Assembly (NCBI GenBank): GCA_016927185.1
Contig: JAFGND010000094.1
Span: forward strand, 1 to 46,936
Direction of reading: 5' to 3'
Source: Candidatus Coatesbacteria bacterium
GTDB lineage: Bacteria; JAFGND01
Length of the DNA: 46,936 nt
The position numbers and the translations under genes were made by a program. Shown one piece after another: positions 6,959 through 36,588 of the stretch. The notes beneath the pieces are model-generated. The model worked only from the letters and a program-made list of their open reading frames with translations, ran no database searches and was not told where the DNA came from. Each line of letters begins with the position of its first letter. Position 1 is the stretch's first letter.

Positions 6959-8240
6959 ATTCACCTTCACCTACAATTATCTGGAAACCTTTATTAGGCA
7001 GTATTTCTTTAACCAGCTTGTTTATAGCTGCTACGCCTATAGAGTTTATTTCAACAAGTATTTTGTCAAGCGATATTTGTTTGTTATAGAGCATCTGATT
7101 TCTAAGCATGAAACCCAGTCTAGAATGAAGAGACTCCATACTCAAAATAATATTCCTCCTGAACTGCCTTTTGATTCTTTTCAAGTTATCTTCATCAAAA
7201 CCTTTTCTCCTGAATTCAGTAAGTAATCTCTTCAACTCAATCAATGCCTTTTTTGTCGTGTCTTTACTTGTACTGAAATGCACTATCCAATATCCCATAT
7301 CAGACTTCAAACTGTCGAATGTTTGAATTGAATAAACCAAACCCATTTTCTCTCTAAGTTCCTTGAAAAGAAGAGAATTCATTCCTCCTCCAAGATAACT
7401 GGATATTATTGCCAGCGACAGTCTTCTATGATCATTTGCCGGAAATGCCTTGAAAGCAATTGCTACCTGATTTTGTGTCAATTCCGGTCTCAGGATAGTA
7501 AAAGAACCTTTTGTACTCCACCTGGGAATATTTCTTTGAATAACTTCCCCTTCTGGAATTTTTGTCCATTTATTCTTAACTAAATCCATTAGGTCTCTGG
7601 ATTCAAAATTTCCACAAACTCCAAGTATCATTCTATTAGCTCTGTAAGTTTTCTTGTAATAATCAAGCAAAGATTTCTTGTTAATACAGCTTATGGATTT
7701 CTCTGTTCCAAGTATATCTCTGCCTAATGGATGTCTAGGCCACAGTTTGTTGTAAAGCCTGTCCATAAGGAGCTCGTCTGGTTGATCAGAAGATTCCTTG
7801 ATTTCCTCAAGTATTACTTTTTTCTCTTGTTCAATATCATCCAGGGTGAACTTTGGCGAAGTAACAAGTTCATGAACAAGGTCTAGTCCCTGATCCAGAT
7901 ATTCCGACAAAGTGTGAACATGAAATGCAGTATCTTCCCTTCCTGTACTGGCATTTACATGTCCTCCTAAATCTTCAATCCATTCAGAGAGTTCATCAAC
8001 ATCATGTTTCTGAGTTCCCCTGAAGAGAATATGCTCAATAAAGTGGCTTATTCCCTCTGGAAATCCATGTTCATCCCTTACTCCAACTCTTACAATCAAA
8101 CCTATGGCTACACTTCTGAAGAATGGAATCCTCTGATGTACCAAACATAGTCCATTTTTCAAATAATGAATGTCTGGTTCTGCAATTAACGAATCAATGG
8201 CTTCTGTTTTGGATGACTCACTTATTTGCTTCAATTTCAC
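6936..8240 (-). CDS. M16 family (pitrilysin-like) zinc peptidase
   Basis: GISHFIEHILFRGT (HxxEH), NASTGRE, EKKVILEE, LFKELREKMGLVYS; common position downstream of pnp. Confidence 0.92.
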   Translation of the reverse strand: MKLKQISESSKTEAIDSLIAEPDIHYLKNGLCLVHQRIPFFRSVAIGLIVRVGVRDEHGFPEGISHFIEHILFRGTQKHDVDELSEWIEDLGGHVNASTGREDTAFHVHTLSEYLDQGLDLVHELVTSPKFTLDDIEQEKKVILEEIKESSDQPDELLMDRLYNKLWPRHPLGRDILGTEKSISCINKKSLLDYYKKTYRANRMILGVCGNFESRDLMDLVKNKWTKIPEGEVIQRNIPRWSTKGSFTILRPELTQNQVAIAFKAFPANDHRRLSLAIISSYLGGGMNSLLFKELREKMGLVYSIQTFDSLKSDMGYWIVHFSTSKDTTKKALIELKRLLTEFRRKGFDEDNLKRIKRQFRRNIILSMESLHSRLGFMLRNQMLYNKQISLDKILVEINSIGVAAINKLVKEILPNKGFQIIVGEGEYEPFILD

Positions 8241-10314
8241 GTATAGCTTCTTTATAACTTAGTGAAACCCCTTTTTGTTCGTCTATTTTGATGATCTTGA
8301 CCTTGATTTCATCTCCAACATTAATGACATCTTCAACTTTTGCAACTTTTTTATCAGCTAGCTGAGAAATATGAACCAAGCCTTCCTGGTTTGGCAGAAA
8401 CTCCACAAAAGCGCCAAATGTTGCAATTTTCTTGACTTTGCCTGTATATATCTTTCCTAGTTCAGGTACTGCAAGAATATTTTCGATAATCTCTTTTGCT
8501 CTCAAATTATTCTCTTTGTTCATAGAGCTTATTGTTACTTTCCCATCATCTTCTATATTGATTTCAGTTCCAGTTGTTTCTATAATAGAACGAATACTTC
8601 TTCCTCCCTGACCTATTACCTCGCCAATTCTCTCATTATCAATATCAAAACTAAGTATTTGCGGAGCGAATTCTGATAATTCAGCTCTTGGTTTATCGAG
8701 TGTCTGTTTCATTATGCTTATTATCTTGAAATGAGCATCCCTCGCCTGCTTTATGCCACATCTCAGTATATCTTCGTTTATACCCTTAATCTTGATATCA
8801 AGTTGAATAGCAGTAATGCCATCTTCAGTTCCTGCAACCTTGAAATCCATGTCTCCATGGTGATCTTCATCACCAATTATGTCAGTTATTGTTATAAAAT
8901 CATTATTATCCTTGAGTAAGCCTATACTTACACCAGCAACAGGAGATTTTATTGGAACTCCTGCATCCATTAAAGCCATTGAAGCACCACATACTGTTGC
9001 CATTGAACTGCTTCCATTGCTCTCAAGTATTTCGCTGACTATTCTTATAGTATAAGGGAAAATCTCTTCTGCCGGAATGACCGCTGCCAAAGCTCTTTCT
9101 GCAAGATTACCATGCCCTATTTCCCTTCTTCCCGGTCCTCTCAATCCTCCTATCTCACCAACACTGAAAGCAGGAAAATTATAATGCAGCATATAGCTTT
9201 TCCATGATTCTCCCTCAAGATCATCAATAAGCTGCCTGTCATTAACTGTTCCTAGCGTCGTTGTTACAAGAGCCTGGGTTTCTCCCCTTGTGAAAATTGA
9301 GCTACCATGAGCTCTGGGAAGCACTCCTATCATTATATCAATGGGTCTTATTTCAGAAAAACCTCTGTTTCCAATCCTTTTCTTATCCTTGAAGAGCATA
9401 TTTCTTATTAATGAATGCATCTTTCTTTCAAAATAATAAGAAATGATTTTTTCATTATTTTCTTCTTCATTCTTGAATTTCTCCCTCGTTAGACTAAGAA
9501 GTCTCTTGTATTCTTGCTTTCTTAAGTTTTTATCACTGATATCCAACAAAGCAGGCAGTTTGTCTTCAAGGAAAGAAGAAACTTGTTCCTTTAGCTCTGG
9601 AAATTGTTCAAATGGATTAACATATTCCATTTTTTTAGTGTCGAAATTGCTGATAAACTCCTTTTGTATCTTGTTTATTTTCCTTATTTCGTCGTGGGCA
9701 AAATTTATCGCATCAACTAAATCATCTTCTGATACTTCCCTCATCTCACCTTCAACCATTATTATAGCATCATCAGTAGCTACTACAACAATATTAATAT
9801 CGCTGTATGGTATCTGCGAAAAAGTTGGGTTTAAAACCAGGCTTCCTCCAAGTCTCCCAATTCTCACTGCTGAAATAACTTCTTCAAATGGAATACATGA
9901 AATGTTGAGAGCAATAGAAGATCCAATTATTCCTAATATATCTCCATCATTTTCCATGTCTGATGAAAGGATACTAACAACAATCTGAACATCATTAAAA
10001 AAACCTTCAGGAAAAAGTGGTCTTATTGGTCTATCAATTAATCTTGAAGACAATATCTCTTTTTCTCTAGGCTTTCCTTCCCTTTTGAAAAAACCTCCAG
10101 GTATCTTGCCTGCAGCATATGTTTTTTCTCTATATTCAACAGTTAAAGGGAAAAAATCTCTCAATTCCCTGGGGGGTTCTTTATCTGACACAACAGTAAT
10201 CAAGGCAATTGTGTCTCCATATCTTACCCATGCTGCTCCATCAGTTTGCCTGGCAATTCTGCCAGTTTCGATAAAAAGCGTTCTTCCACCTAGCTCAGTT
10301 TGTATACTATGCAT
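8218..10314 (-). CDS. pnp: Polyribonucleotide nucleotidyltransferase (PNPase)
   Basis: DFFPLTVEYRE, GKIPGGFFKREG, RREIGHG, ESNGSSSMA, GDMDFKVAGT; C-terminal KH and S1 domains; GGAG RBS. Confidence 0.98.
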   Translation of the reverse strand: MHSIQTELGGRTLFIETGRIARQTDGAAWVRYGDTIALITVVSDKEPPRELRDFFPLTVEYREKTYAAGKIPGGFFKREGKPREKEILSSRLIDRPIRPLFPEGFFNDVQIVVSILSSDMENDGDILGIIGSSIALNISCIPFEEVISAVRIGRLGGSLVLNPTFSQIPYSDINIVVVATDDAIIMVEGEMREVSEDDLVDAINFAHDEIRKINKIQKEFISNFDTKKMEYVNPFEQFPELKEQVSSFLEDKLPALLDISDKNLRKQEYKRLLSLTREKFKNEEENNEKIISYYFERKMHSLIRNMLFKDKKRIGNRGFSEIRPIDIMIGVLPRAHGSSIFTRGETQALVTTTLGTVNDRQLIDDLEGESWKSYMLHYNFPAFSVGEIGGLRGPGRREIGHGNLAERALAAVIPAEEIFPYTIRIVSEILESNGSSSMATVCGASMALMDAGVPIKSPVAGVSIGLLKDNNDFITITDIIGDEDHHGDMDFKVAGTEDGITAIQLDIKIKGINEDILRCGIKQARDAHFKIISIMKQTLDKPRAELSEFAPQILSFDIDNERIGEVIGQGGRSIRSIIETTGTEINIEDDGKVTISSMNKENNLRAKEIIENILAVPELGKIYTGKVKKIATFGAFVEFLPNQEGLVHISQLADKKVAKVEDVINVGDEIKVKIIKIDEQKGVSLSYKEAIREIEANK

Positions 10315-23611: not shown

Positions 23612-26521
23612 TTAACTATTGTCCATGCGTTTCTTTTTCTTTGCATCAAGCAATCGCTTGGTAAAAAGTTCCACATTTTCTTCTGTCTTAGGTTCATCAG
23701 ATTCTTGTTTTTCAAGAGTAGATTTTGGAACTGTGTTTTCCTCTTTCTGGATTTTTTCCTTGACTTCAATTTTTGGAACATATGTCTTGGATATTTTAGG
23801 GATTTCTGCAGTCTCACTTTCATCTCTGTTGATTTTTTTCTTATCTAGAAGACGTTTAAGTGAATCTTCTGTCTCTTTGACTTCTTTTCTCTTGCTTATG
23901 CTTATTGTAAAGAAAGATCTAAGAAAAACCCAGATTTTCTCCCATAACTCTCTTCCAATGATAATTCTTCTAATTGCTACATCAAGAGGGAAAAGTAGAA
24001 GAGCTAAAACAAGCAGATATTCCCATACAGGCTTGGAAACCATAACAACAGGTCTTGTTCTGAAAATCTCTTCAGATTCAGGCTTGAATATACCTTTCGT
24101 TTCTTTTGCCAAAATAGACAAATACTCCTTGGGCAGGTTTTGTAAAGAGAACTCCTTCGAATACGGAAATACATGAGCGATTGTCTCGCTCAACTTGACA
24201 TTTCCTGTTGAATCCCTCGCAGTTAGCTTGAATAAATAGGTTCCCTTCTTTATATTAGGAAGTTCCGCAGCATATTGACCTAAACCTTCTTGCTTCATAC
24301 TTATCTTTTCTATCTTGCCATCAGGTGATATCAATGTAATCTTGCTTTCCATTAAATTAAGGCTTTTTCCTTCATCATCAAATAAATCGGCCTGTATCTT
24401 CAATTTTCCATTTTCAAATTCGCTAACATTCATTTCTGCTTTGCCTTCAGATTCACTTCTTGATAAGGATCTTGCAAGTTGCTTGAATAAACCTCCAGCT
24501 TCTGGCCATTTTGTCCATTCTTTACCCCATCTTGGTTGAACATCAGAGGTAAAAGCCGCACTTTTTCCAATCCCATAATTCCATATAGCAAGGAGAGGAT
24601 CATCTTTATGTGTTATCAAGATAGATTGAGCAATCTTGCTGCTTTTCAAGGTTGTTGCATTATAACCAAATAAAGGGGGAATACCCTTGTCTAATCCGCT
24701 TAATATCTCGGAGTAACTTGATTTTTTTGGAATAAATCTCTCCTCAATAACACTGTGGCCAACTGCTCTCATTGCCTCCTGAGTAAATATTTGAGGTAAA
24801 GCCTGGACATTCTGGGAAAAATAGAACTTGCCTCCTCCCCACTTTGCAAGTTCCTGCAAAAAATCAACATCAGCATCTTTACCAATTCCAACTGTACTCA
24901 ATGTTATTTTAGCATTGGTTATTGTGCTTGCGAGATTCTGGAAATCCCCTCCCTGGGTCTGCCCGTCAGTCAAGGTTATCATATGTTTCTTGAATGCTTT
25001 TATATTACTTAATTCTTTATATGCTTCATCAAGAGCTGGATACATATTAGTTCCTCCACCTTCTCTCAGCGAAGCTATTTCCTCAATTATCTTGTCTTTG
25101 TTGGATACCTTTATTGGTCTTATAACCCATTTGGCTTCACCATCAAATGCTACTACTCCCAGGTAATCGTTGGGACCCAATAATTCCGCTGTTAAGATAG
25201 CAGCTTCTTTGGCTAACTCAATTTTAGGAACTCCTCCCTCGCCCATACCCATTGATCCTGATTTATCTATTACTAATATAAGGGCACTGCTTGGATATAT
25301 TCCTCTTTTTTCCACATCCATCCTTACAGGAAGAACCTCCTCAATAGGAGTTTTGAAATATCCTCCAACTCCATAAGATTTAGAACCTCCTATCATCAGC
25401 AAACCGCCTCCCAACTCCTCAACATAAGTCTTTAATGACTTCATTCGTTCTTCGCCCAAAGTTGGAGCATCAACATTATTCAGTATTATCAAGTCATAAT
25501 TTTCCAGATCAACAAGATTAAGAGGACAACTGCTGCCTGGTAATACAGTCACATAATATCTTCCCATGCTCTGCAAAATCTCAGTTAAATACTCATTTCC
25601 TCCAGTCTCATCCAGAAACAATATCCTGGGTTTTGCTTTTACTTGAACAGGAGCAATTGCCTGGTTGTTCTCTAGAAGATTATCATCCTTTGGTTGAACA
25701 ATTGCTCTGAAATTATGTATTCCTGCAATTTGCTCCCTGTAAGAAAACCTGAATCTATTCTTGCCTTCCTTCAAATCCACAATTTCCTTTGTTATAAGCT
25801 TTTCTCCTTGAAATATTGATAGAGGTACAGCTTTCATTTCCCTGGGAGATGATACTACTATATCAATATTGAAAGGCTGGTCTTCAGAAATCTTCCAGGG
25901 AGCTCTTATAGATGTTATTGCAACTTCATCAGATATATAACTCGATAATGGAATTACATCGATAGGAACTTTCTGAAGATTGAATCTGCCAATTATCTCC
26001 AGCGCTTTTCCTTCTGTTTCCTGTCCATCAGATATCAATACAACTTTACCTGCCTTATCTTGAGGTAATGCAGCTAAAGCCAATTCAAGCCCTTTGAAAA
26101 TATTAGTTCCATCCTGCCCTGGTTTGCTTTCATAATCAACAAAAGAAAACTCATTTTTGCTAAAAGGTGGACATTCCATCAAAGCTTCTTGTCCAAAAAG
26201 CACTATTCCAATCCTGTCTTCCTTGCCCATTTCCTTAGTGCTATTTGTAATGAATTCTGCTGTTTCCTTGAAACTATTAGGTGGGATTGATAAACTCCTG
26301 TCAATAACGTAAAAAACTGTCAAACCTTCACTTTTTCTTTTTATTTCTATTTGTGAAATAGCAAGTATTATCAATGAATAAATAAGTATCCTTATAAACA
26401 AGGATATTGCTGATCTTATTCTACCCAGTCCTGTATTACCCTGATAAAAACTTATGAAAAAAACAGGTATGAAGAATAGCAACAAAAGATAATATGGATT
26501 TAGAATATTAAACAAATCCAA
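23612..26521 (-). CDS. Large membrane protein with two vWA domains and a glutamine-amidotransferase-like domain
   Basis: N-terminal TMs; MIDAS motifs DRSLS and DKSGS; ISDGQE; GGGLLMIGG..SYGVGGY..TPIEE.LPV; GGTNMYPAL; LTDG; PLLA.W.YG.GK.AAFTSD; C-terminal TM and basic tail. Confidence 0.9.
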   Translation of the reverse strand: MDLFNILNPYYLLLLFFIPVFFISFYQGNTGLGRIRSAISLFIRILIYSLIILAISQIEIKRKSEGLTVFYVIDRSLSIPPNSFKETAEFITNSTKEMGKEDRIGIVLFGQEALMECPPFSKNEFSFVDYESKPGQDGTNIFKGLELALAALPQDKAGKVVLISDGQETEGKALEIIGRFNLQKVPIDVIPLSSYISDEVAITSIRAPWKISEDQPFNIDIVVSSPREMKAVPLSIFQGEKLITKEIVDLKEGKNRFRFSYREQIAGIHNFRAIVQPKDDNLLENNQAIAPVQVKAKPRILFLDETGGNEYLTEILQSMGRYYVTVLPGSSCPLNLVDLENYDLIILNNVDAPTLGEERMKSLKTYVEELGGGLLMIGGSKSYGVGGYFKTPIEEVLPVRMDVEKRGIYPSSALILVIDKSGSMGMGEGGVPKIELAKEAAILTAELLGPNDYLGVVAFDGEAKWVIRPIKVSNKDKIIEEIASLREGGGTNMYPALDEAYKELSNIKAFKKHMITLTDGQTQGGDFQNLASTITNAKITLSTVGIGKDADVDFLQELAKWGGGKFYFSQNVQALPQIFTQEAMRAVGHSVIEERFIPKKSSYSEILSGLDKGIPPLFGYNATTLKSSKIAQSILITHKDDPLLAIWNYGIGKSAAFTSDVQPRWGKEWTKWPEAGGLFKQLARSLSRSESEGKAEMNVSEFENGKLKIQADLFDDEGKSLNLMESKITLISPDGKIEKISMKQEGLGQYAAELPNIKKGTYLFKLTARDSTGNVKLSETIAHVFPYSKEFSLQNLPKEYLSILAKETKGIFKPESEEIFRTRPVVMVSKPVWEYLLVLALLLFPLDVAIRRIIIGRELWEKIWVFLRSFFTISISKRKEVKETEDSLKRLLDKKKINRDESETAEIPKISKTYVPKIEVKEKIQKEENTVPKSTLEKQESDEPKTEENVELFTKRLLDAKKKKRMDNS

Positions 26522-26524
26522 CTG

Positions 26525-27403
26525 CTATCTCCTTTTAAATCTGGAGAATTCTCCCCTTAATAAAAGATTGAGAATTATTTCCTTGAAATCCAGATTTGAA
26601 CTTACAAAAGTATATCCTATTCCGTATCGTTTGGAAAACTGATCAATCTCTTCTTTATAAAGCCTCAATCTGTATTTATATCCATCCAGGTAACTTTTAT
26701 TAATAGTTATGGGCAATTCACTTTCAGTTTCCTTGTCTATGAGTTTCAAATTACCATCCAGATCGGGATTTATTTCAAAAGGTGACAAAATCTGAATCAA
26801 GGATAAATCATGTTTTCGGAATATCAAATACTTGAAAGCATCCAGTGAAGAAGAACAATAAAAATCTGATATAAAAACAACAAGCCCGGAGTTTCTTGTC
26901 CTTATACAGAAATCCTTGACTGCTTCAAGCAGATTTGTTTCCCCTTTTGTTTCAAGGCTATCTATGTAGTTTATTAGAGAAAAAATCTGTCCTTTTCCTC
27001 TTACTCTCTTTGAAGATGAAGATATTGAGTTGGAAAAGCTGGTGATTTGTGTCCTGTTACCGCTTGTTAAACCAATATAAGCAATAGCAAGTGCCAATCT
27101 GCAAGCCAGATCAAATTTCCCTTCAAAATCCATGCTTTTTGAACAATCAAGAAAAACGTGCACAGTTAAATCTTCCTCAAGTAGATATATTTTTACGAAC
27201 AATTCTCTCAGCCTCATGAAAATATTCCAGTCAACTGATCTAAAATCGTCTCCAGGTACATATTTCTTATAATCAGCAAATTCCAGGGAAAATCCCCTTT
27301 TCTTTGTAAGTCTTATGCCTGAAAGCTGACCCTTCAAAATCTTTCTTGCTATTACTGCAATCCTGTCTAGCTCTTTTATTATTTCTTCTCTGTTAGTTAA
27401 CAT
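26525..27403 (-). CDS. DUF58 family protein (MoxR partner)
   Basis: G.SLEFADYKKYVPGDDFRSVDWN, LDCSKSM, VFISDF. Confidence 0.95.
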   Translation of the reverse strand: MLTNREEIIKELDRIAVIARKILKGQLSGIRLTKKRGFSLEFADYKKYVPGDDFRSVDWNIFMRLRELFVKIYLLEEDLTVHVFLDCSKSMDFEGKFDLACRLALAIAYIGLTSGNRTQITSFSNSISSSSKRVRGKGQIFSLINYIDSLETKGETNLLEAVKDFCIRTRNSGLVVFISDFYCSSSLDAFKYLIFRKHDLSLIQILSPFEINPDLDGNLKLIDKETESELPITINKSYLDGYKYRLRLYKEEIDQFSKRYGIGYTFVSSNLDFKEIILNLLLRGEFSRFKRR

Positions 27404-27404
27404 A

Positions 27405-28370
27405 TCAAATAGTTAATATTTCCTCTATAATTGTATCAGGTTTTATTCCTTCAGCTTCTCCTTCAAAACTCAAAATCATTCTATGTCTCAATGCAGGTTT
27501 TGCAACTGCTTTTATATCATCAATAGCTACATTGTATCTCCCTGAAAGCAGGGCATTAATTTTGGCACCAAGTATTAAAACTTGCATTCCCCTAGGTGAA
27601 GAACCATACTTTATATACTTTTTTGATAAAGGATGACTGTTTTCTATTTCAGGATGAGTAGCTAGGACTATTCTGGCTGCATATTCCAAAACTCCTTCAG
27701 CAACAGGCACCTCCCTTATCAGACTCCTGTATGTAAGCAAAGTCTGTCCATCTGCCACTTTTTTGAGATCAACTTCTTCCTGGGAAGTTGTTCTTTTGCT
27801 TATCAATACTAGTTCCTCAACGGATGGAAAAAACACATCCAGTTTAAAGAAAAATCTATCAACCTGAGCTTCTGGAAGTGGGTAGGTTCCCTCCATTTCA
27901 ATAGGATTTTGAGTTGCCAGAACAATAAAAGGTTCTACAAGCTTGTATGTTTTACCCATCACAGTAACCTGATGCTCCTGCATGGCTTCAAGCAAGGCAG
28001 ATTGGGTTTTAGGAGTTGCCCTGTTTATTTCATCAGCAAGAACTATCTGTGCAAATAAAGGACCTTTCTGAAACTCAAATAATTGCTTATCTCCTTCTCC
28101 CTGAACTATTACATTTGTACCTATTATATCTGAAGGCATTAAATCCGGAGTAAATTGTATTCTTGAAAATTCAAGATCCAGTACTTTTGACAGGGATTTT
28201 ACCAGAACAGTCTTGCCAAGACCTGGAACTCCTTCTAAAAGAATATTACCTCCAGAAAACAAACCAAATAAAACGAATCTTATAAGCTCTTCTTGCCCTA
28301 CTATCATTTTGCTTATTTCTGAACCAATCTCCTGAAAGGTAGTTCTAAACTTTGCTACCCTCTCTTCCAT
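27405..28370 (-). CDS. moxR: MoxR family AAA+ ATPase
   Basis: LLEGVPGLGKT, FSRIQFTPDLMPSDIIG, LADEINRATPKTQSALLEAMQE, ATQNPIEMEGTYPLPEAQ.DRF; GGAGG RBS. Confidence 0.97.
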   Translation of the reverse strand: MEERVAKFRTTFQEIGSEISKMIVGQEELIRFVLFGLFSGGNILLEGVPGLGKTVLVKSLSKVLDLEFSRIQFTPDLMPSDIIGTNVIVQGEGDKQLFEFQKGPLFAQIVLADEINRATPKTQSALLEAMQEHQVTVMGKTYKLVEPFIVLATQNPIEMEGTYPLPEAQVDRFFFKLDVFFPSVEELVLISKRTTSQEEVDLKKVADGQTLLTYRSLIREVPVAEGVLEYAARIVLATHPEIENSHPLSKKYIKYGSSPRGMQVLILGAKINALLSGRYNVAIDDIKAVAKPALRHRMILSFEGEAEGIKPDTIIEEILTI

Positions 28371-30234
28371 AATCCTCCCCTTTAATTATTCCAAGACGAA
28401 TCATTAATTCCCTTGGTTTTCGCCATCTTGTAAAAATAAACCATTCTATAAAAAGCAGAAGCAGACCTAATAAAGCTATATATGTCCACCACTCTGCTTG
28501 TGATATAATCTTCTTGTCAATTTCCTTGCCTTGTCTTGCTCTTAGATTTGGAATGTCAGAAGGTGAGATAGCAGATTCAGATGAAGAAATAAAATTGGCT
28601 GCAATGGATTGTCTTATTCCTTCATCTCCTTCTATTGTATAAAATCCTGCGCTATCTACTGGTAATATGCTACCGACTTTTATATCCTTCTTGATTTTTT
28701 CTTTTCTGAGAAAGGAATTTTTATATAATGCGATATCAGGAACTGTAAAATCCTTGCTTAGATTGTGATAATAGACAATATTACTTGCTTCAAACCATTC
28801 AAGAGTATTTATTATTGCAAATACGAAAGATGTATGAATTGGCAAATCAGTTTCCGATAGTGCAAATTCCCATGAGAGATATTTTATTCCTTTTTGTTCT
28901 CCTGCCCAGATTATTGGATTACTGCCAATATAAAGAAGCGGATAAGCAAAATCAGGCATCCTTATATCTGTGTTAAAAGAGCTGAAAAGTACCTCATTCC
29001 ACTGTATATACTTGTTAAGAGGATTTTTTGCATCCCAGTCTATTATCTGATATACCTGTTCTCTTGCTTTCTTTCCAGTAGATGCTGGGCTGGATCCAAT
29101 AAAAAAAGTTGGATATGGTGGATATGATTTTACCGAAATGTTATCAAGTATTATAAGATCGGAAGGAAGATTTGTAAAGTCAAATTCAGCTGAAACCTGT
29201 GAATAAAATTTGACATCAACATTTTTATATGCAAAAAGCAACCCGGCCAAAAAACCCGGATTGGATGAAAAAACAGATACTTTAGGTTTGATTTTTCCCT
29301 TCAGAACTGCATATACTTGATTATCTATGGAATAAGAATCATCATTCAATATCTTGAAGGTGATTTTATCCCATGACCTGTCTAAATTTATTATGCTTCC
29401 TTTGCTTTCTTGAGGTGATAGAGTGTAATTGAATATATCTAATTGCCTATTATCAACTATCTGGGAGATTGAAAAATCTTTTTTTTCATTTCCATAATTT
29501 TTTACTTCCAGAAAACATTGAAATATCTCTCTGTTGCCTTCTTCAAAACGCTTGATTGAAAAATTGCTGATGCCAATGTTTTCTTTTACTTCACCTATCT
29601 TCTTGAATAATATCTTCCCAGGAAAAAAGAATTTATCATCAGGTGAAATTGTTACCCCATCAGAGAGAATAAACAAATAGGAATTTGAGTTTTCTTTTGC
29701 CATTGATGTAAGGAGGTTTAGGCCTGACGAAAGATCAGTAGGTCTTATACTTTGTGATATCTGCTTTATGAAAAGCCTCAATTTTGATTTCTCGTCACTA
29801 AGTCCTGATACGCTTTCTATTCTGTTACTACAAGTGACTATTATCATCTTGTCATTTGACTTCAGATTATCAATAAGCTTTAATGCCTCATTTTTAGCTA
29901 TGTCCAGTCTTGTTTTATTGCCTTCATTTGTTGTCATTGATGCAGAATTATCTATCAAAACACAATATAACGAGTTGGGAGCAATGAAACTCTCCCAATA
30001 AGGTCTAAGTAAGGCAAAAACAATAAATCCTATGAAAAGTATCTGTAAAAATAAAAGTAAATTTTTTCTCAATCTCTGGAAAAGAGAATTTGCCTGTTTA
30101 TCCATAAGGAATTTCTGCCATAGAAAAAGGCTAGGTATCAGATATTTCTCTCTTTTCAATTTAAGAAAATAGAAAATTATTATCAGAGGAATTAATCCAA
30201 GTAGTGGCAAGGCAGATAAATTTAAAAACTTCAT
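28345..30234 (-). CDS. BatA-like N-terminus plus vWA domain membrane protein
   Basis: MKFLN....L..IPLIIIFYFLK.KR....IPSL.LW (BatA-like); MIDAS DNSASM; LSDG; C-terminal W....LL.LLLL.IEW. Confidence 0.9.
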   Translation of the reverse strand: MKFLNLSALPLLGLIPLIIIFYFLKLKREKYLIPSLFLWQKFLMDKQANSLFQRLRKNLLLFLQILFIGFIVFALLRPYWESFIAPNSLYCVLIDNSASMTTNEGNKTRLDIAKNEALKLIDNLKSNDKMIIVTCSNRIESVSGLSDEKSKLRLFIKQISQSIRPTDLSSGLNLLTSMAKENSNSYLFILSDGVTISPDDKFFFPGKILFKKIGEVKENIGISNFSIKRFEEGNREIFQCFLEVKNYGNEKKDFSISQIVDNRQLDIFNYTLSPQESKGSIINLDRSWDKITFKILNDDSYSIDNQVYAVLKGKIKPKVSVFSSNPGFLAGLLFAYKNVDVKFYSQVSAEFDFTNLPSDLIILDNISVKSYPPYPTFFIGSSPASTGKKAREQVYQIIDWDAKNPLNKYIQWNEVLFSSFNTDIRMPDFAYPLLYIGSNPIIWAGEQKGIKYLSWEFALSETDLPIHTSFVFAIINTLEWFEASNIVYYHNLSKDFTVPDIALYKNSFLRKEKIKKDIKVGSILPVDSAGFYTIEGDEGIRQSIAANFISSSESAISPSDIPNLRARQGKEIDKKIISQAEWWTYIALLGLLLLFIEWFIFTRWRKPRELMIRLGIIKGEDYGREGSKV

Positions 30235-31854
30235 CTATTCCATTGATTTGTAATATTCTCTTATCAAGTCTTTGTATCTTACAGGAACCTGTTTCTCCTG
30301 TATGGCTTCTTCTTCGGTTCTCTTGATATCCTTTATCAACTCTCCTTCATCAGTTATCAATGTTTTCATATCATCAATACCCTGAAATTTGAACTGTGTA
30401 ATCTCCTCCTTATCAGAGACCTTACCCTCAACTTTTGTTGCATAACCTTTGCTTTTTGTTCTCATTGAATCATACATTTTTTTGTATTCACCGATTTTCT
30501 GGGATTTATCCTTGTTTATCTTTTTTTCACTTTTCAAAACATCAGGTGCCTCTTTATCTGTTTTCTCATGTTCATTAGTACTGCTGGTACCAGGTTTCAA
30601 TCCCTGTTCAGTTTTCAATTCTCCCTTTTTCCATTTTTCAAGAAGCTCTTTCCTGTGTTTCAGCAATTCATCAAGTTGATCCTTAGAAATCTTGTCTCCA
30701 CCTGTTTGAATTTTGGTTGAGGACTTGTTTAGCTGATCCATAGTCTCACCTAGACTTTTACATCCTGAACTGCTTCAGGTTCCTTCCTTTTTCTCTTTTG
30801 ATAACTGTTCCAGCTTGTTCTCCAGATCCTTTAATGTCTTTGAAGCTTCTTTCTGTTGATTGTTCTTAAGCTGCTGAGACAATTTCTGCATCTGTTCTGC
30901 CAGTTTCGGATCAGCTGACTTCAAGTCATTAGCTGAATTCTCTATTGATTTTGCAGCATCTTTTATAGACTCCTTGTCTGCTTTATTTTCCGATAGTGTT
31001 TTTTTAACTTTTTCAAGTTCCTTCTTTGCTTTCTCCCATTCCTGTTTCTGCATCCCTTTGGCAGTTTCACCTAGTTCCTTATTCTTGGATAAATCCTGTC
31101 CCATTTTTGTAAGCTTGTTTTTTAGTTCTTCCTTCCTGGCTTGATCTGAAAACTCTTCTTTCATTTTCTCCATTTGGTATTTCATTTCATTCATCGCTTC
31201 TTTTCTTGTTAATTCTTTGTTTGCAAGAAGCTTCTCAAGTCTCTTTTCCATGTTTTCATATTTTTTTGCAATTATCGGATTCTTTTCTGAGGCTCTTTTT
31301 GTTTTATAAAATTCTTTGAGTTCTTTCAGTTCCTTCACAACATCGGGTTCCTGTTTGATTGTGGCTTTAGTAGATTTTGCAGATAATGGAGGAAGGTACA
31401 GTAAACCTAAGATTGAAGTTAATAATAATATTGGTATCAGCCAAGAAAATTTTTCAAACTTCAGTGGAAAAGTATTTCTGATATCCAGATTAGTAAGTGT
31501 ATCTCTGCAATCATCAAGGAGTGCATTAATCAGTGGACTTGTCTTATTCTTGAATTCTAAACCGGTTTGTATTTTCTCTTTCAACTTTAATTGTTTATCT
31601 AATAATCTTGCAGTTCTTATGGAATCAAGAGGAGCTGCTATTCCATATACTATTGCTGCCAAAAATGCAATCAAGAGTATTGAAAATCCCCAATACCAAG
31701 GATAGTTCAGGGAAAATAGCTTAAATGCAATTGTCCATAACAGAAGAAATGCCATACCTAGAAGAAAAGCTTTTTGCAATAAGGATGTAATGAATTGCAT
31801 CCTGTGTTTTCTTCTTACTGGCTTGAAAAGAATATCCAACTCAGACATAATCAA
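30235..31854 (-). CDS. Membrane-anchored coiled-coil protein of the MoxR-vWA operon, read through an in-frame TGA at 30777-30775 (candidate selenoprotein, about 539 aa)
   Basis: The 359-aa and 168-aa ORFs share one frame (31854-30741=1113, divisible by 3). Between them are only TGA plus 11 sense codons (SSSGCKSLGET). N-part: TMs, D..LKLKEKI.TGLEF, coiled coil. C-part ends VPVRYKDLIREYY. Confidence 0.7.
30731..30779 (-). promoter_or_regulatory. Putative bacterial SECIS-like stem-loop downstream of the in-frame UGA
   Basis: mRNA ACC UGA AGC AGU UCA GGA UGU AAA AGUCU-AGGUG-AGACU AUG GAU CAG CU. 5-bp upper stem with a GGU-containing loop starting 23 nt after UGA; possible lower stem AGCAGUUCA/UGGAUCAGCU. 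Confidence 0.5.
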
Positions 31855-33446
31855 TAATCCTCAAGATTTGGTAGATAGATTTTCAATTGATTCAAGGGTT
31901 TCAAGGCAATATCAAGAAGTATCCAGAATACTGAAGTAAAAAAGCAAATCGATAAGTTTACTGAAGTGTACAAGATGAAATCTGTTTTTATTATCCCTTG
32001 ATTAGAAAAGCCGTCTTTAATAGTATCGGAAACAAAATACAATGCATTCATAGATCCCAGGATAAAATCAGCTGGAGACTTAAGTGCTTTTGTACTATTG
32101 AGTATAAAAGTAATTCCCAAATAGACTAGTACCAAGATAAAATATAAAGTGACTGCTATTCTTTTCTTGGGCATGATGTTCTGGAGTAATCTTGAGAAAG
32201 TTACATATGGAACTAAAGAAAGAAAAGTCATAAGAAAATAGTAAAATACTATCTTATCTTGTCCAGTAAAAGTCTTTGGGAAAAAGATAATACTTAGAAA
32301 TGGTCCAATAAGAATCACTGAAAAATAAAGCAGAAACTTAACTATATCATCCCCAGCATTCCTCGGAAGATTTAGTGGAAACAAATACCTATCATTAGGT
32401 AATAATTCATTACTTTTGCATCTCGGGATAATTGGGAAAAAAGGTATTGCAGAAATGAAAAATATTGAAACATACAAAAAGTAAGCAGAAAAAAATCTTA
32501 AAGTGTTATCTATATTAGAATAAGATATCCTTGAAGAGGTTATCATACTTGTAGTTCTTGAATAGGAAGACCAGAACGACAAAAACAGGATCAACAAAAA
32601 GCATGCAATGATCCCAAGATTATATTTAGGTGGTAACAACGTAATTGGCTCATCAAAACGCTTGATGGATCTTGCAGATAGATAATTAAAAAAAACTATG
32701 AATAATCCAAGTATCAAAATGGTTGGAATCCAGAAGGGTATCTTGAATTTAAAAATAAGGAAATTTACACTTCCATTCGCAAAACCATATATTATATTTA
32801 TCGGGAAAAGTACTGATATCAATGGTAAATTCTGGGTTTTTGAGTAATACCTGAATACCTCTACAAAAATCAAAGAAATAATAAAAATACAAAAATTGAA
32901 GCCTAGCATGAAGAATATTGCTGATCTATTATTTCTGACAACGCTTGATATAAAAACACCAATACTAGACAAAAAAATGCTGTAGATAAGCATGAAAAAC
33001 ATGAATGAAATAATTGTAAAAATATCAATTCCGCCTACTACTGTTCCTATTATCTTAAGAGGCAGAGAAACACTCAGAAGAAGTACTATTAAAATAAAAG
33101 TTGAAGCCAGCTTTCCAAAAATAATGCTTCCAGCCGACATAGGCGAGCTTAGAATGAAACCAAATGTCTTTGCTTTCAATTCAGATATTATAGCTTGAGA
33201 GGTGATTATTGACAAATATACAGAAAGCAGTATAAATTCAGCATATGCTATTGTATAGAAAAACTGCTGTCCAAGAACTACATTATTTTGTCTTTTTGTT
33301 TCAATATCCAGATAGGATACTAGAAATATGAAAGCTATTATTAAAATATAGATTACTATAGTAACAAGAATTGCAGGATTTCTGACTCTTTGCCTTAATT
33401 CTAGAGCAAGAATTGGATTGTCCATTATCCTTGAAAGGACTTTCAC
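31851..33446 (-). CDS. ABC-2 type transporter permease (large, about 12 TM)
   Basis: NPILALELRQRVR, SQAIISE...KTF..ILSSPMS.GSIIFGKL, many TMs. Start GTG 33446 or ATG 33425. Confidence 0.88.
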   Translation of the reverse strand: MKVLSRIMDNPILALELRQRVRNPAILVTIVIYILIIAFIFLVSYLDIETKRQNNVVLGQQFFYTIAYAEFILLSVYLSIITSQAIISELKAKTFGFILSSPMSAGSIIFGKLASTFILIVLLLSVSLPLKIIGTVVGGIDIFTIISFMFFMLIYSIFLSSIGVFISSVVRNNRSAIFFMLGFNFCIFIISLIFVEVFRYYSKTQNLPLISVLFPINIIYGFANGSVNFLIFKFKIPFWIPTILILGLFIVFFNYLSARSIKRFDEPITLLPPKYNLGIIACFLLILFLSFWSSYSRTTSMITSSRISYSNIDNTLRFFSAYFLYVSIFFISAIPFFPIIPRCKSNELLPNDRYLFPLNLPRNAGDDIVKFLLYFSVILIGPFLSIIFFPKTFTGQDKIVFYYFLMTFLSLVPYVTFSRLLQNIMPKKRIAVTLYFILVLVYLGITFILNSTKALKSPADFILGSMNALYFVSDTIKDGFSNQGIIKTDFILYTSVNLSICFFTSVFWILLDIALKPLNQLKIYLPNLEDY

Positions 33447-34375
33447 TGCACTTTTCCTTTTGTAATTTTCATAAAAACTTCATCCAGATTATATTTTCTG
33501 GGAGAAAAAGAAATTATCGGAAAGTCACTCATAATAAGATGTTTCATTATTTTTTTTATAGATTCATCTCCATCATTACAAAGAATGGTGTACTCCTTTC
33601 CCTCCCCTTTCATTTCAATAACATCTTCTATTTCAAGGATTGCTTCATTTTCAGGCTTACTAAGCTCTCTGTAAAAACCTAAAGAGATGTAATTACCGCT
33701 CCTTAACTTGATTTGAATATCATCAAGAGAACCTTCAAAGACCATTTCCCCAGCTTCAATAATTCCAAATCTATCGCACAAACCCTCCATTTCACTTAGA
33801 ATATGTGATGAAATGAGGATTGTCTTTCCCATGGATTTCAGCTCCTTCAAAAGCATGAGCAATTCTATTCTTGCTCTTGGATCAAGACCTGAGGCAGGTT
33901 CATCAAGTAACAATATCTTGGGATTATGAACAAGTGTTTTTGCAAGAAGAAGTCTCTGAGTCATTCCTCTTGAAAGATGCCCTACCAATGAATTCTTTTT
34001 CTCACTTAAATCTACCAAAGCCAAACAGTCGTCAATTATCTTATTCCTTTTGCTGGGTGGAACTTCATATGCTCTACAGAAAAAATCAAGGTATTCCCAT
34101 ACAAATATATGTCTGTAAATACCTACAACATCGGGCATGAAGCCTATCTGTTTTCGTAATTCATATCTATTATTAATATCCAAATGCATATTATCAATTA
34201 CTACTTCTCCTTCATAGTCTCTTGTTAATGTTGAAAGTATTCTTAAAGTAGTAGATTTACCTGCTCCATTTGGTCCAATGAATCCATATATTTCCTTGAA
34301 ATTAATACTCATGTCAATACCTTTCAAGGCATTCAAATTACCGTAATTCTTTTTTAATCTGATTATTTCTATCAT
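33443..34375 (-). CDS. ABC transporter ATP-binding protein
   Basis: GPNGAGKST, LSRGMTQR, LLLDEPASGLDPRAR, ISSHILSE. Confidence 0.96.
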   Translation of the reverse strand: MIEIIRLKKNYGNLNALKGIDMSINFKEIYGFIGPNGAGKSTTLRILSTLTRDYEGEVVIDNMHLDINNRYELRKQIGFMPDVVGIYRHIFVWEYLDFFCRAYEVPPSKRNKIIDDCLALVDLSEKKNSLVGHLSRGMTQRLLLAKTLVHNPKILLLDEPASGLDPRARIELLMLLKELKSMGKTILISSHILSEMEGLCDRFGIIEAGEMVFEGSLDDIQIKLRSGNYISLGFYRELSKPENEAILEIEDVIEMKGEGKEYTILCNDGDESIKKIMKHLIMSDFPIISFSPRKYNLDEVFMKITKGKVQ

Positions 34376-36588
34376 TTCAATGTAACATTATATTCAAACA
34401 TAAAAAAGTCAATATTTAACCTTTTTGATTCCTTTGAAATCATGAATGTTCTTGGTTGCTTATTATTCCATCCGCATATATATAGTCTTTTATCATCCCT
34501 GCTAATTGGATTCCCTCTCATTGTGCTTGAGAAGTACTTGTAGAATTTCTTGCCACTTATACTTCCATTATCCAATGATGCCCAGATCATTGCCTTTATG
34601 AAATCAGTATGATTTTTCTCATCATCCTTATCTTCAGCTAGCAATTTAAAATCATTTATTATTTTGGAGTGAATAAGTCCTGAAGCAGGATATGAATATG
34701 ATGCATATTTATGAGAAGTTTTACCTGTTTTGGGATTGTATGCAGCAGTTGGTTTTGAAGTTTTGACCATAGGTATTTTGATTATTGCTTTTACATCCTT
34801 TCCGGATTTGAATTTTCCTATTATCTTATAATTTTCTCCATAAATCAAAATAGCATCATCAAGATCATAAGGGAGATTATTGGTAATTGAAAAGTGTATT
34901 GTACTGTCTCTCATTATTTTATGTTCACATGAAATATTCCCTTTCAAATCAATGCTCTTATAAGTTAAAAAACTCTTGGTTTCTCCAGGTGAAAACCAGA
35001 TGGATGAAAACTCTCTCCCTCCCTTGTCAATTTCCCAGATAGTATTCATTTTATAATTATTTGAAACAGGATAGAAGAAAATATCATCAGAAACTGTTCT
35101 TATTGTAAAGTTTTGCCTGACTGGAGAAAAAACAGAATTGAGTGTAATTATAGACGCATTATTCTGTTTTACATAAGCTGAGACAAAATTCAATTCAGTC
35201 GTATATACGTCCTTCTCTGTGTGAAGAAAAACAATAAGATATGCTGCCAACGTCCATAACAAAGCTGAAGCTGGCACAGAATACCATAGCAATATCCTCT
35301 TTTTCAAGTAACTGAAAAGGAAATAGTTTACAGGTCCAATGAAAATAATATATGCAAAAAGGAAAAACGAGATAAAAAGAAGGGTTGGTATCTTTATTTT
35401 ACCATGATAATCAAAGGAATTCTCCATGTTACTAAGCAGCTTCTTTTTTTCATTTTGATCATAATAGCTTTTTTCTTTTCTCGAATTATCCCATGGAATT
35501 CGTGAAAGAAGCGGAATGTTTCTTGTATCCTGCATATTGAATGCCATAACCAGTATACTTCCAAGTCCATATTTGTAACTTGCCCATATTAAATCATTAT
35601 TATATCTTTCTTCCTTGAAAGGACTAATAATTGACTGTATCTTATAGTTTTCAAGCTTTAACTCTATTTTTTGAAGTACTACCTTTGTTGAATCAATCTG
35701 ATTAACAATTGAGGAATCCTTCTCTGCAATATTATGATTATTAAGGGCATCATTTGTATCCGGCATTTCTATAGTTGTTGGAGAATCCATATTTTCATTT
35801 ATCTCATATTTAACCGCATTTGAATCAGATATTGAAGAATTCCAAAGGATTTCGGAACCTTTTTCATACTGAAATGGAAATGATTTGGGAATCTGATCTT
35901 TTAGAAGAAGCCATTGAGGATTAGGTGAAACTATAAGCAATCCTCCCTGACTTATCCAGTCACTTAGTGCTCTTGTGAAAACATATCTTTTCGCATTATC
36001 AGGAGATATGTCACCAATCACAATCACTTTTACTGAAGAAAGACCTATTGATGAATGAGGAAGCTTCTCTGGATGAATTACCTGCATATTATGATTATCT
36101 GAGAAAAGCTTTATAACAGGAAATGTCATTTGCTCACTAATGAAAAGAACCAGAAAGCTGTTATATTCAAGATTATTCATTTTTATTGGGATGATACCAG
36201 GCTTGGCTGGTCCGGATTTTCTATATCTTGTATATTCACCTTGTTTGATTATTTTGCCGTCTTTTGAAACAAGATTAACCTCAAGGCTATTGAACCATTG
36301 TGGTAATGGAAGCAACATTTCAAATGATTTGCTGTTCTGAGGACCTGGCATAGATACTCTTGTTTTCCATGTAAAAGATGCATCATTATCATTTGTCCTG
36401 TGAATAACTGCCTCAAGCCTACCTTCAAAATCACCATTAGTAGTCTCAATGTCTATAATCAATGGATAATAAGATCCTTCTTCAAAATAGCCATTAAAGC
36501 AAGGTTTAATATCAAATTTAACTATATCCCCAGCATCCAGCAAAACTGCTTTGAATACTAATATAAACAAAATTAAAAATCTACTCAT
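34372..36588 (-). CDS. Exported/membrane accessory protein of the ABC-MoxR module (Ig-like and GATase-like regions)
   Basis: Signal peptide; G.F..G.Y.P; L..WI.QGG.LIV; YGLGSI; TM pair FL.AYIIFIGPVNY...KKR.LLW.SVP, typical of genes beside such ABC pairs. Confidence 0.7.
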   Translation of the reverse strand: MSRFLILFILVFKAVLLDAGDIVKFDIKPCFNGYFEEGSYYPLIIDIETTNGDFEGRLEAVIHRTNDNDASFTWKTRVSMPGPQNSKSFEMLLPLPQWFNSLEVNLVSKDGKIIKQGEYTRYRKSGPAKPGIIPIKMNNLEYNSFLVLFISEQMTFPVIKLFSDNHNMQVIHPEKLPHSSIGLSSVKVIVIGDISPDNAKRYVFTRALSDWISQGGLLIVSPNPQWLLLKDQIPKSFPFQYEKGSEILWNSSISDSNAVKYEINENMDSPTTIEMPDTNDALNNHNIAEKDSSIVNQIDSTKVVLQKIELKLENYKIQSIISPFKEERYNNDLIWASYKYGLGSILVMAFNMQDTRNIPLLSRIPWDNSRKEKSYYDQNEKKKLLSNMENSFDYHGKIKIPTLLFISFFLFAYIIFIGPVNYFLFSYLKKRILLWYSVPASALLWTLAAYLIVFLHTEKDVYTTELNFVSAYVKQNNASIITLNSVFSPVRQNFTIRTVSDDIFFYPVSNNYKMNTIWEIDKGGREFSSIWFSPGETKSFLTYKSIDLKGNISCEHKIMRDSTIHFSITNNLPYDLDDAILIYGENYKIIGKFKSGKDVKAIIKIPMVKTSKPTAAYNPKTGKTSHKYASYSYPASGLIHSKIINDFKLLAEDKDDEKNHTDFIKAMIWASLDNGSISGKKFYKYFSSTMRGNPISRDDKRLYICGWNNKQPRTFMISKESKRLNIDFFMFEYNVTLK

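Follow-up and report, generated by a model that had tools for sequence, protein, structure and literature searches.

A Candidate Selenoprotein in an Unnamed Coiled-Coil Protein Family Encoded Beside MoxR-vWA Genes in a Candidatus Coatesbacteria Genome

An Interrupted Gene and Its In-Frame TGA

The stretch of DNA analyzed here (the window) comprises positions 1 to 46,936 of contig JAFGND010000094.1 from a Candidatus Coatesbacteria bacterium (GenBank assembly GCA_016927185.1), and the gene in question, at 30235..31848 on the minus strand, is interrupted by a single in-frame TGA that probably encodes selenocysteine (Sec, U). Read through the TGA, the gene extends from ATG 31848 to a TAG at 30237-30235 and encodes 537 aa, or 539 residues when counted from the TTG at 31854; the choice of the ATG agrees with the protein P0002, which begins MSELD. 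The N-terminal half is an open reading frame (ORF) at 31854..30775 (−) of 359 aa from the TTG, and the C-terminal half is a 168-aa ORF at 30741..30235 (−) in the same frame. The TGA itself lies at 30777-30775 (−) in the context ACC UGA AGC, corresponding to U360 from the TTG and U358 from the ATG, and the junction of the readthrough product is ...KEKKEGT-U-SSSG-C-KSLGET-MDQLNK..., in which Cys365 (TGT, 30762-30760, −) would partner U360 in a U-x4-C motif. A profile of the protein family covers positions 1-511 of 514 in the window gene, across the one TGA. Coordinates and translated junction thus bear out an initial annotation, which had described two in-frame ORFs parted by a single TGA. The locus could also be read as a split gene: the TGA would then end a 357-aa membrane-anchored coiled-coil protein, and a new start at ATG 30741 (Met372; 30739..30741, −) would yield the 168-aa C-terminal half as a protein of its own.

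Three further sequencing runs, from two other studies, yielded contigs that carry the same TGA: X2 (30674-32000, 14 differences), X4 (30544-31094, four differences) and X5 (30722-30929, two differences), with all differences at other positions; among the matches listed for run X3, a divergent strain, none covered the site. Because independent contigs of X2, X4, and X5 reproduce the codon, we conclude that it is not an error. TGA is also an ordinary stop elsewhere, as the initial annotation had stated: in the window it closes 10 of the 33 ORFs that reach 200 codons, and genome-wide it closes 378 of the 1446 that reach 300. Sequencing or assembly error and genome-wide TGA reassignment are ruled out by these two sets of observations.

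Both Halves Belong to One Protein Family

A search of the readthrough protein against 1.84 billion representative proteins returned 1255 homologues at E ≤ 0.001. Among the best 150 of these, lengths of 500–650 aa predominate, and 25 of the same 150 give a single alignment that begins at the N terminus and reaches the final residues. Because most homologues are single chains spanning both ORFs, the halves correspond to the two ends of one family protein, as had been proposed from the window alone.

The window protein is predicted to consist of hydrophobic N-terminal helices, a Lys/Glu-rich coiled coil, a disordered Gly/Lys-rich stretch, and a C-terminal two-helix motif. Two hydrophobic helices at approximately residues 29-47 and 55-73 (31636..31770, −) form a putative membrane hairpin, which we infer inserts into the membrane, and a third (approximately residues 137-155; 31390..31446, −) lies ahead of the invariant Pro155. 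The C-terminal motif, VPVRYKDLIREYY (30250..30288, −), corresponds to the family consensus IPxxYRxxVRxYF. In a 33-sequence alignment the family parts on the N-terminal side are the membrane hairpin, a D..L.LKERLSTALE motif, and the third hydrophobic helix with its invariant Pro; on the C-terminal side they are a long coiled coil, a variable Gly-rich linker, and the IPxxYRxxVRxYF motif, in which P524 is invariant and Y534 nearly so. The AlphaFold model is all-helical (predicted local distance difference test, pLDDT, 76.7; predicted template modeling score, pTM, 0.44), with helices at residues 2-47 and 53-73 modeled at pLDDT ∼90, U360 within a short loop joining helices 334-356 and 362-383, and residues 413-503 disordered. 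No fold in the PDB matched the model at E ≤ 0.001, no Pfam family matched the protein at E ≤ 0.01, and NCBIfam gave no match over its cut-offs, only coiled-coil noise far below them. DUF4175 (PF13779) is precomputed for a distant match, P0009; the window protein has no match to that profile above its cut-off.

The database entries for several relatives end at or near the TGA. The closest two, P0003 (90% identity) and P0004 (51%), end as proteins where the first ORF of the window ends, and eight more distant cluster representatives stop at "GGT" (P0104, P0106, P0091, and P0057), at LKxCxx (P0048, P0120, and P0154, where the full-length P0081 has LKECLGC), or, in the same region, at "LSGC" (P0007). 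A 60%-identical relative of the C-terminal half, P0012, has its called start 33 residues downstream of Met372. When the C-terminal half served as the sole query, the window's own protein was the only match among proteins of near that length, and no loci related to P0003, P0004, or P0012 were found in the genome or metagenome contigs searched; a further genome scan turned up the Cys-form locus of P0081 alone.

These truncated entries bear on two alternatives. A recent nonsense mutation of a Cys codon in a decaying gene would require one base change (TGT or TGC to TGA), in a family that often has Cys in this motif. We nevertheless consider it very improbable, given that runs from three studies agree on the TGA, that P0003 and P0004 (90% and 51% identity) break off at this very site, and that the C-terminal half has stayed open, keeps the invariant family residues, and has a relative in P0012. 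A split gene fits the separate calling of the halves in the window, P0003, P0004, and P0012, but the same calls would be expected of a Sec gene. The restart is also not visibly conserved, judging from the called start of P0012, and in a split gene the Cys five codons past the stop would fall in the spacer.

Selenocysteine Machinery and TGA-Bearing Relatives

The genome, which is 93% complete, encodes the machinery for Sec insertion, with selA (342 bits), selB (335 bits), selD (327 bits), and tRNA-Sec (68 bits) all above curated cut-offs. The selD gene has its own in-frame TGA, in SCAG-U-ASKLG, and further selenoprotein genes include fdhA, with a TGA at the classical CARLU site, AhpC/TSA-like genes with a UxxC motif, and a gene for a DUF1858 protein with CxxU, beside additional candidates. 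These were picked by eye for known motifs, since a codon-usage scan for TGA-joined ORFs returned 11204 pairs and was too noisy for a census. A YraN-like ORF ends just upstream of the selA ORF (locus L001).

We scanned two sets of genomes for interrupted family members. The first comprised 401 genomes from the phylum of a planctomycete locus with a Cys-form member, whose protein was the query; the family was matched in 52 genomes, four of which had in-frame stops (three, two, one, and three), all TGA. The second matched the family profile against 401 broadly sampled genomes and found it in 60, with one TGA each in the window's own genome (G000), G026, and G747. Across both scans, therefore, seven genomes hold an interrupted member: the planctomycetes G286, G376, G064, and G416, plus G026, G747, and G000. 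All 12 interrupting stops are TGA; no TAA or TAG interrupts a family member among the 52 genomes matched in the first scan, and no stop other than TGA does so among the 60 of the second, which argues against a split gene. In every TGA-bearing member the reading frame continues to the conserved C-terminal motif.

The sequence context of the TGA is shared with distant relatives. G747 reads SGGT-U-SGGS-C-GQLIAQLN where the window has EGT-U-SSSG-C-KSLGETMDQLN, so that both hold GT-U-S-x-x-x-C followed by a ..L....QLN helix, and G026 reads C-QGGT-U-RGG. The codon context is ACU UGA AG(U/G) in G747 and G026, compared with ACC UGA AGC in the window. A split gene is hard to reconcile with a break that coincides with the Sec position of the G747 motif, with the lack of any Met after the TGA in G026, or with the lack of a Shine-Dalgarno (SD) sequence before the nearest Met in G747. 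Among the planctomycetes, G286 (locus L033) has CPS-U-GEKKDGPSG-U-KGKSGEG-U-PGG, and G416 is alike with three U; G376 (L053) has CPSC...GG-U...QG-U-PGG, with Cys at a site of Sec in L033; and L046 has CEECAQKGEP-U-GGNGRC.

TGA-bearing members also occur in genomes equipped to decode them. A tRNA-Sec was detected in 7 of 7 such genomes (59–72 bits) and selB above cut-off in three of the four planctomycetes, whereas five planctomycete genomes with an uninterrupted gene had tRNA-Sec scores of at most 50.6 bits, and one Cys-form genome, G041, had no selB above cut-off. The candidate Sec insertion sequence (SECIS) hairpins of the relatives are good, with AGUU, GGUC, or GGUA loops beginning 18–19 nt past the UGA: GCGGUC-AGUU-GAUCGC in G747, GGCC-AGUU-GGCC in G026, GGUC loops in L046 and G416, and GGUA loops in L033 and L053. 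The loci L033, L053, and L080 (G286, G376, and G416) each carry two or three in-frame TGA within 18–19 codons (CPSU..GU..GU), and successive SECIS hairpins there must therefore overlap the next Sec codons.

Cysteine Pairs at the Motif

Full-length homologues frequently carry a Cys pair in the linker that corresponds to the U-x4-C region. A C-x2-5-C pair is present there in 71 of 134, with CxxC in 50, Cx4C in 32, and C-x-[GSN]-G-x-C in 19, so that the C-x3-G-C motif that the initial annotation had ascribed to some homologues does exist. With the Sec position masked by X, the Cys365 column holds Cys in 21 of 103 homologues, compared with a Cys content of 0.67% for the family. The family is widespread and unnamed, with about half of its members carrying CxxC, Cx4C, or a DnaJ-like CxxCxGxG at this place.

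The Downstream Hairpin, an Overlapping Start Signal, and the Weighing of Readings

A SECIS-like hairpin, AGUCU-AGGUG-AGACU, lies just downstream of the TGA at 30742..30756 (−), as had been described, with arms at 30756-30752 and 30746-30742, a 5-bp stem, and a loop (30751-30747) that begins 23 nt after the UGA. A pairing region for the lower stem that had been suggested beneath it is there (30774-30766 with 30740-31), but the pairing is imperfect, with A.A and U.U mismatches. A search of 30600-30900 against Rfam gave no family matches, only two chance snoRNA matches at E > 6.

Several observations weigh against a Sec codon. The minimum-free-energy fold of 30715-30780 does not contain the hairpin and, at −14.2 kcal/mol, is unexceptional, with z = −0.69 and 42 of 200 shuffled sequences as stable; the expected hairpin is present but only moderately SECIS-like. 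The hairpin does match a pattern with a background of 46 in 2892 random in-frame sites (1.6%) and 9 in 378 ordinary TGA stops (2.4%), but the pattern (stem of at least 5 bp; loop of 3–7 nt with GGU or AGUU or an initial GU; loop start at 14–26 nt) was devised after the candidate had been seen. Its AGGUG loop at 23 nt also departs from the five clearest SECIS elements of the genome (selD, fdhA, two thioredoxin-like genes, and a beta-helix gene), which have stems of 5–8 bp and loops at 16–18 nt with the sequences AGUUA, AGUUU, AGUUAAG, GGUCU, and GUC. Comparably distant loops occur only in less certain candidates of the genome, such as C22x (GUC at 23 nt); from our reading of predicted folds, two papain-family genes have G(G)CUU loops further out than 23 nt. 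In the masked alignment column 360 is Cys in only 1 of 103 homologues, and the higher count of 21 of 110 obtained with Cys as a placeholder for Sec is biased. When G747 and G026 are aligned globally with the window protein by MAFFT, the U motifs fall out of register, in the case of G747 because that protein has a Q-rich insert. The selA ORF (G000:C83, ∼7300-8483) starts MRKVINATG and lacks ∼85 N-terminal residues of the profile.

The remaining point of this kind concerns translation restart. The sequence AGGUGA, a perfect 6-nt SD site at 30746..30751 (−), occupies the hairpin loop and 3′ arm and places its AGG core 7 nt before ATG 30741; the 16S rRNA end of this genome reads GGATCACCTCCTTTCT, and AGGUGA matches the canonical tail perfectly. 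Of 1339 proxy starts, 22.6% have such a 6-nt site, whereas the share is 1.4% among 12056 internal ATGs, a ∼16-fold difference. A perfect SD site at ideal spacing ahead of the first ATG past the stop, together with a hairpin atypical for the genome, keeps a split gene with restart in consideration. The lineage of a split gene may go back to a Sec-containing form whose decoding was later lost, and the split may possibly exist alongside Sec decoding. Weighed against the evidence from relatives given above, a split gene seems to us unlikely.

The low Cys count at column 360 leads us to a qualified form of the expected correspondence between Sec and Cys: as judged from the alignments, it appears to hold for a motif of variable spacing and not for one fixed column.

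We consider it most likely, with a probability of roughly 0.75, that the TGA at 30777-30775 is a Sec codon, because distant relatives in selenium-using organisms share an in-frame TGA in the same Cys motif. The initial proposal of a selenoprotein is thereby strengthened, drawing on the Sec machinery, the reproduced TGA, the single-chain homologues, and TGA-bearing homologues in six other Sec-using genomes. The product would be a single chain of ∼537 aa that carries three hydrophobic helices near its N terminus, a coiled-coil stalk, and a U-x4-C motif in an inter-helix loop, and Sec would replace one or more of the motif Cys residues in Sec-using lineages. Decoding would proceed by the SelB and tRNA-Sec of the organism plus the hairpin just downstream, which SelB would presumably accept. 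The Sec/Cys pair may form a selenylsulfide redox site or a metal-binding site at the tip of a helix-loop-helix stalk.

The overlap of hairpin and SD site also allows a speculative combination, to which we give little credence, in which UGA, hairpin, and start site make up a selenium-gated switch between fused and split products. SelB binding would lead to Sec insertion and one membrane-tethered full-length protein; 30S binding would go with termination and restart at AUG 30741, leaving a shortened anchor and an untethered C-terminal domain. Because the loop of the SECIS-like hairpin contains the SD site, the two binding events would be mutually exclusive. If such a switch existed, the architecture of this transporter- and MoxR/vWA-associated protein would depend on selenium supply.

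Comparison With Known Systems

If the Sec reading is correct, this protein is likely to represent a new selenoprotein family decoded by a known type of mechanism, as far as sequence comparison can tell. The family is absent from the 87 families in Table 1 of a 2022 review of prokaryotic selenoproteins, although a few domain-less "hypothetical" families listed there could, judged by name alone, still be the same. Passages on deep-Sep (2025) and BSepDB (2026, 111 families), whose full lists are in supplements, mention no membrane, coiled-coil, vWA, MoxR, or planctomycete selenoprotein. Passages of a 2026 AEM review contain nothing on planctomycete, von Willebrand, MoxR, transmembrane, or coiled selenoproteins, and those of a 2016 planctomycete genome paper, whose candidate list sits in its supplement, describe nothing like the family. 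A literature search joining selenoprotein and MoxR returned nothing relevant.

The nearest parallels are the UxxC/CxxU selenoproteins (thioredoxin-like, AhpC/TSA-like, and FdhA), which share with the window gene a UGA beside a Cys, homologues in both Cys and TGA forms, co-occurring Sec machinery, and a G-rich small-loop hairpin. The window protein differs in having no thioredoxin fold or recognizable enzyme domain, in its U-x4-C spacing, and in the position of the motif in a loop of a helical stalk; the planctomycete members differ further by up to three Sec in 18–19 residues. The SECIS of Escherichia coli fdhF has a GGUC apical loop ∼18 nt after the UGA. It is resembled by selD and fdhA of this genome and by the G064 and G416 family members, all with GGUC loops 16–18 nt after the UGA, but less so by the window hairpin, with its AGGUG loop at 23 nt, 5-bp stem, and overlap with an SD site and start codon. 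Some family members (P0118, P0055, and P0135) carry CxxCxGxGCxxCxGxG at this place, as in the DnaJ zinc finger, whereas the single U-x4-C pair of the window protein could not by itself supply all the ligands that a zinc site of the DnaJ type needs within one chain.

To our knowledge, the bacterial selenoproteins described so far are, with few exceptions, redox enzymes or proteins with a thioredoxin fold. The reading proposed here would add a widespread family of membrane-anchored helical stalks with a small Cys/Sec motif and no recognizable enzyme fold, with Sec forms in at least three distant lineages and as many as three Sec in a single planctomycete chain. It would also account for the truncated database entries and the orphaned C-terminal domain, because gene callers cut proteins at TGA. 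The alternation of Sec and Cys points to the motif as the functional center of a family found near ABC-2 transporters and MoxR/vWA systems.

Genomic Neighborhood

The gene lies on the same strand as a transporter upstream and a MoxR/vWA cluster downstream. Upstream are genes for an ABC ATPase (33443-34375, −) and an ABC-2 permease (31851-33446, −), the stop of which overlaps the start region of the gene; downstream are genes for BatA_N/VWA (28345-30234, −), MoxR AAA_3 (27405-28370, −), DUF58 (26525-27403, −), and VWA/GATase1-like (23612-26521, −) proteins. This places the gene directly upstream of, and on the same strand as, a cluster of the Bat type (MoxR AAA+/DUF58/BatA vWA), though none of the BatA, vWA, and DUF58 domains occurs in the window protein.

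The planctomycete members have different flanks, with an ABC-2 permease upstream (L053), solute-binding proteins (L033 and L053), a DUF4760 protein (L033), and an NHL-repeat protein (L046); no MoxR/vWA neighbors were seen in the ∼1.5 kb of flanking DNA examined at L033, L046, and L053. Because these flanks are without MoxR/vWA genes and one has an ABC-2 permease, the ABC-2 transporter may be the steadier partner of the family. The label of MoxR-operon protein in the initial annotation is thus apt for the window, where the genes adjoin, but it may not define the family, since planctomycete members adjoin an ABC-2 permease or solute-binding protein instead. Further upstream in the window, a 738-aa ORF between ispD and the ABC ATPase (34372-36588, −) had no Pfam or NCBIfam match.

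Other Selenoprotein Candidates in the Genome

Several other genes of this genome carry in-frame TGA codons in suggestive positions. The locus L062 (G000:C43:257-1342) encodes a papain-family protease (Peptidase_C1, E = 1.3e-30) with a TGA at the expected catalytic Cys, in DFGHG-U-TSSSVFA, and a paralogue (G000:C66 near 53944, +) has a TGA in RNAN-U-SERC, where L062 has Cys. No Peptidase_C1 selenoprotein appears in the family list of the 2022 review. At L060 (G000:C68:81443-82216), a beta-helix/DUF5123-like secreted protein has a TGA in KNCGG-U-GQTW and a clean hairpin, GGGAGC-AGUUU-GCUCCU, 16 nt downstream of it; this looks like another candidate selenoprotein of a non-enzyme type. L060, L063, L064, and L065 are TGA-containing secreted proteins that share a C-terminal tail, ..(T/S)WGGIK(K/R/S)(L/M)Y(R/K) (WGAIKKLNKK in L063), which may be a C-terminal sorting signal. 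Finally, of the 378 TGA stops that close ORFs of 300 codons or more, 7 are followed by a hairpin matching a narrow SECIS pattern (loop at 15–19 nt), compared with 0.6% of random sites, and some of these seven stops may encode Sec and be followed by a short C-terminal extension.

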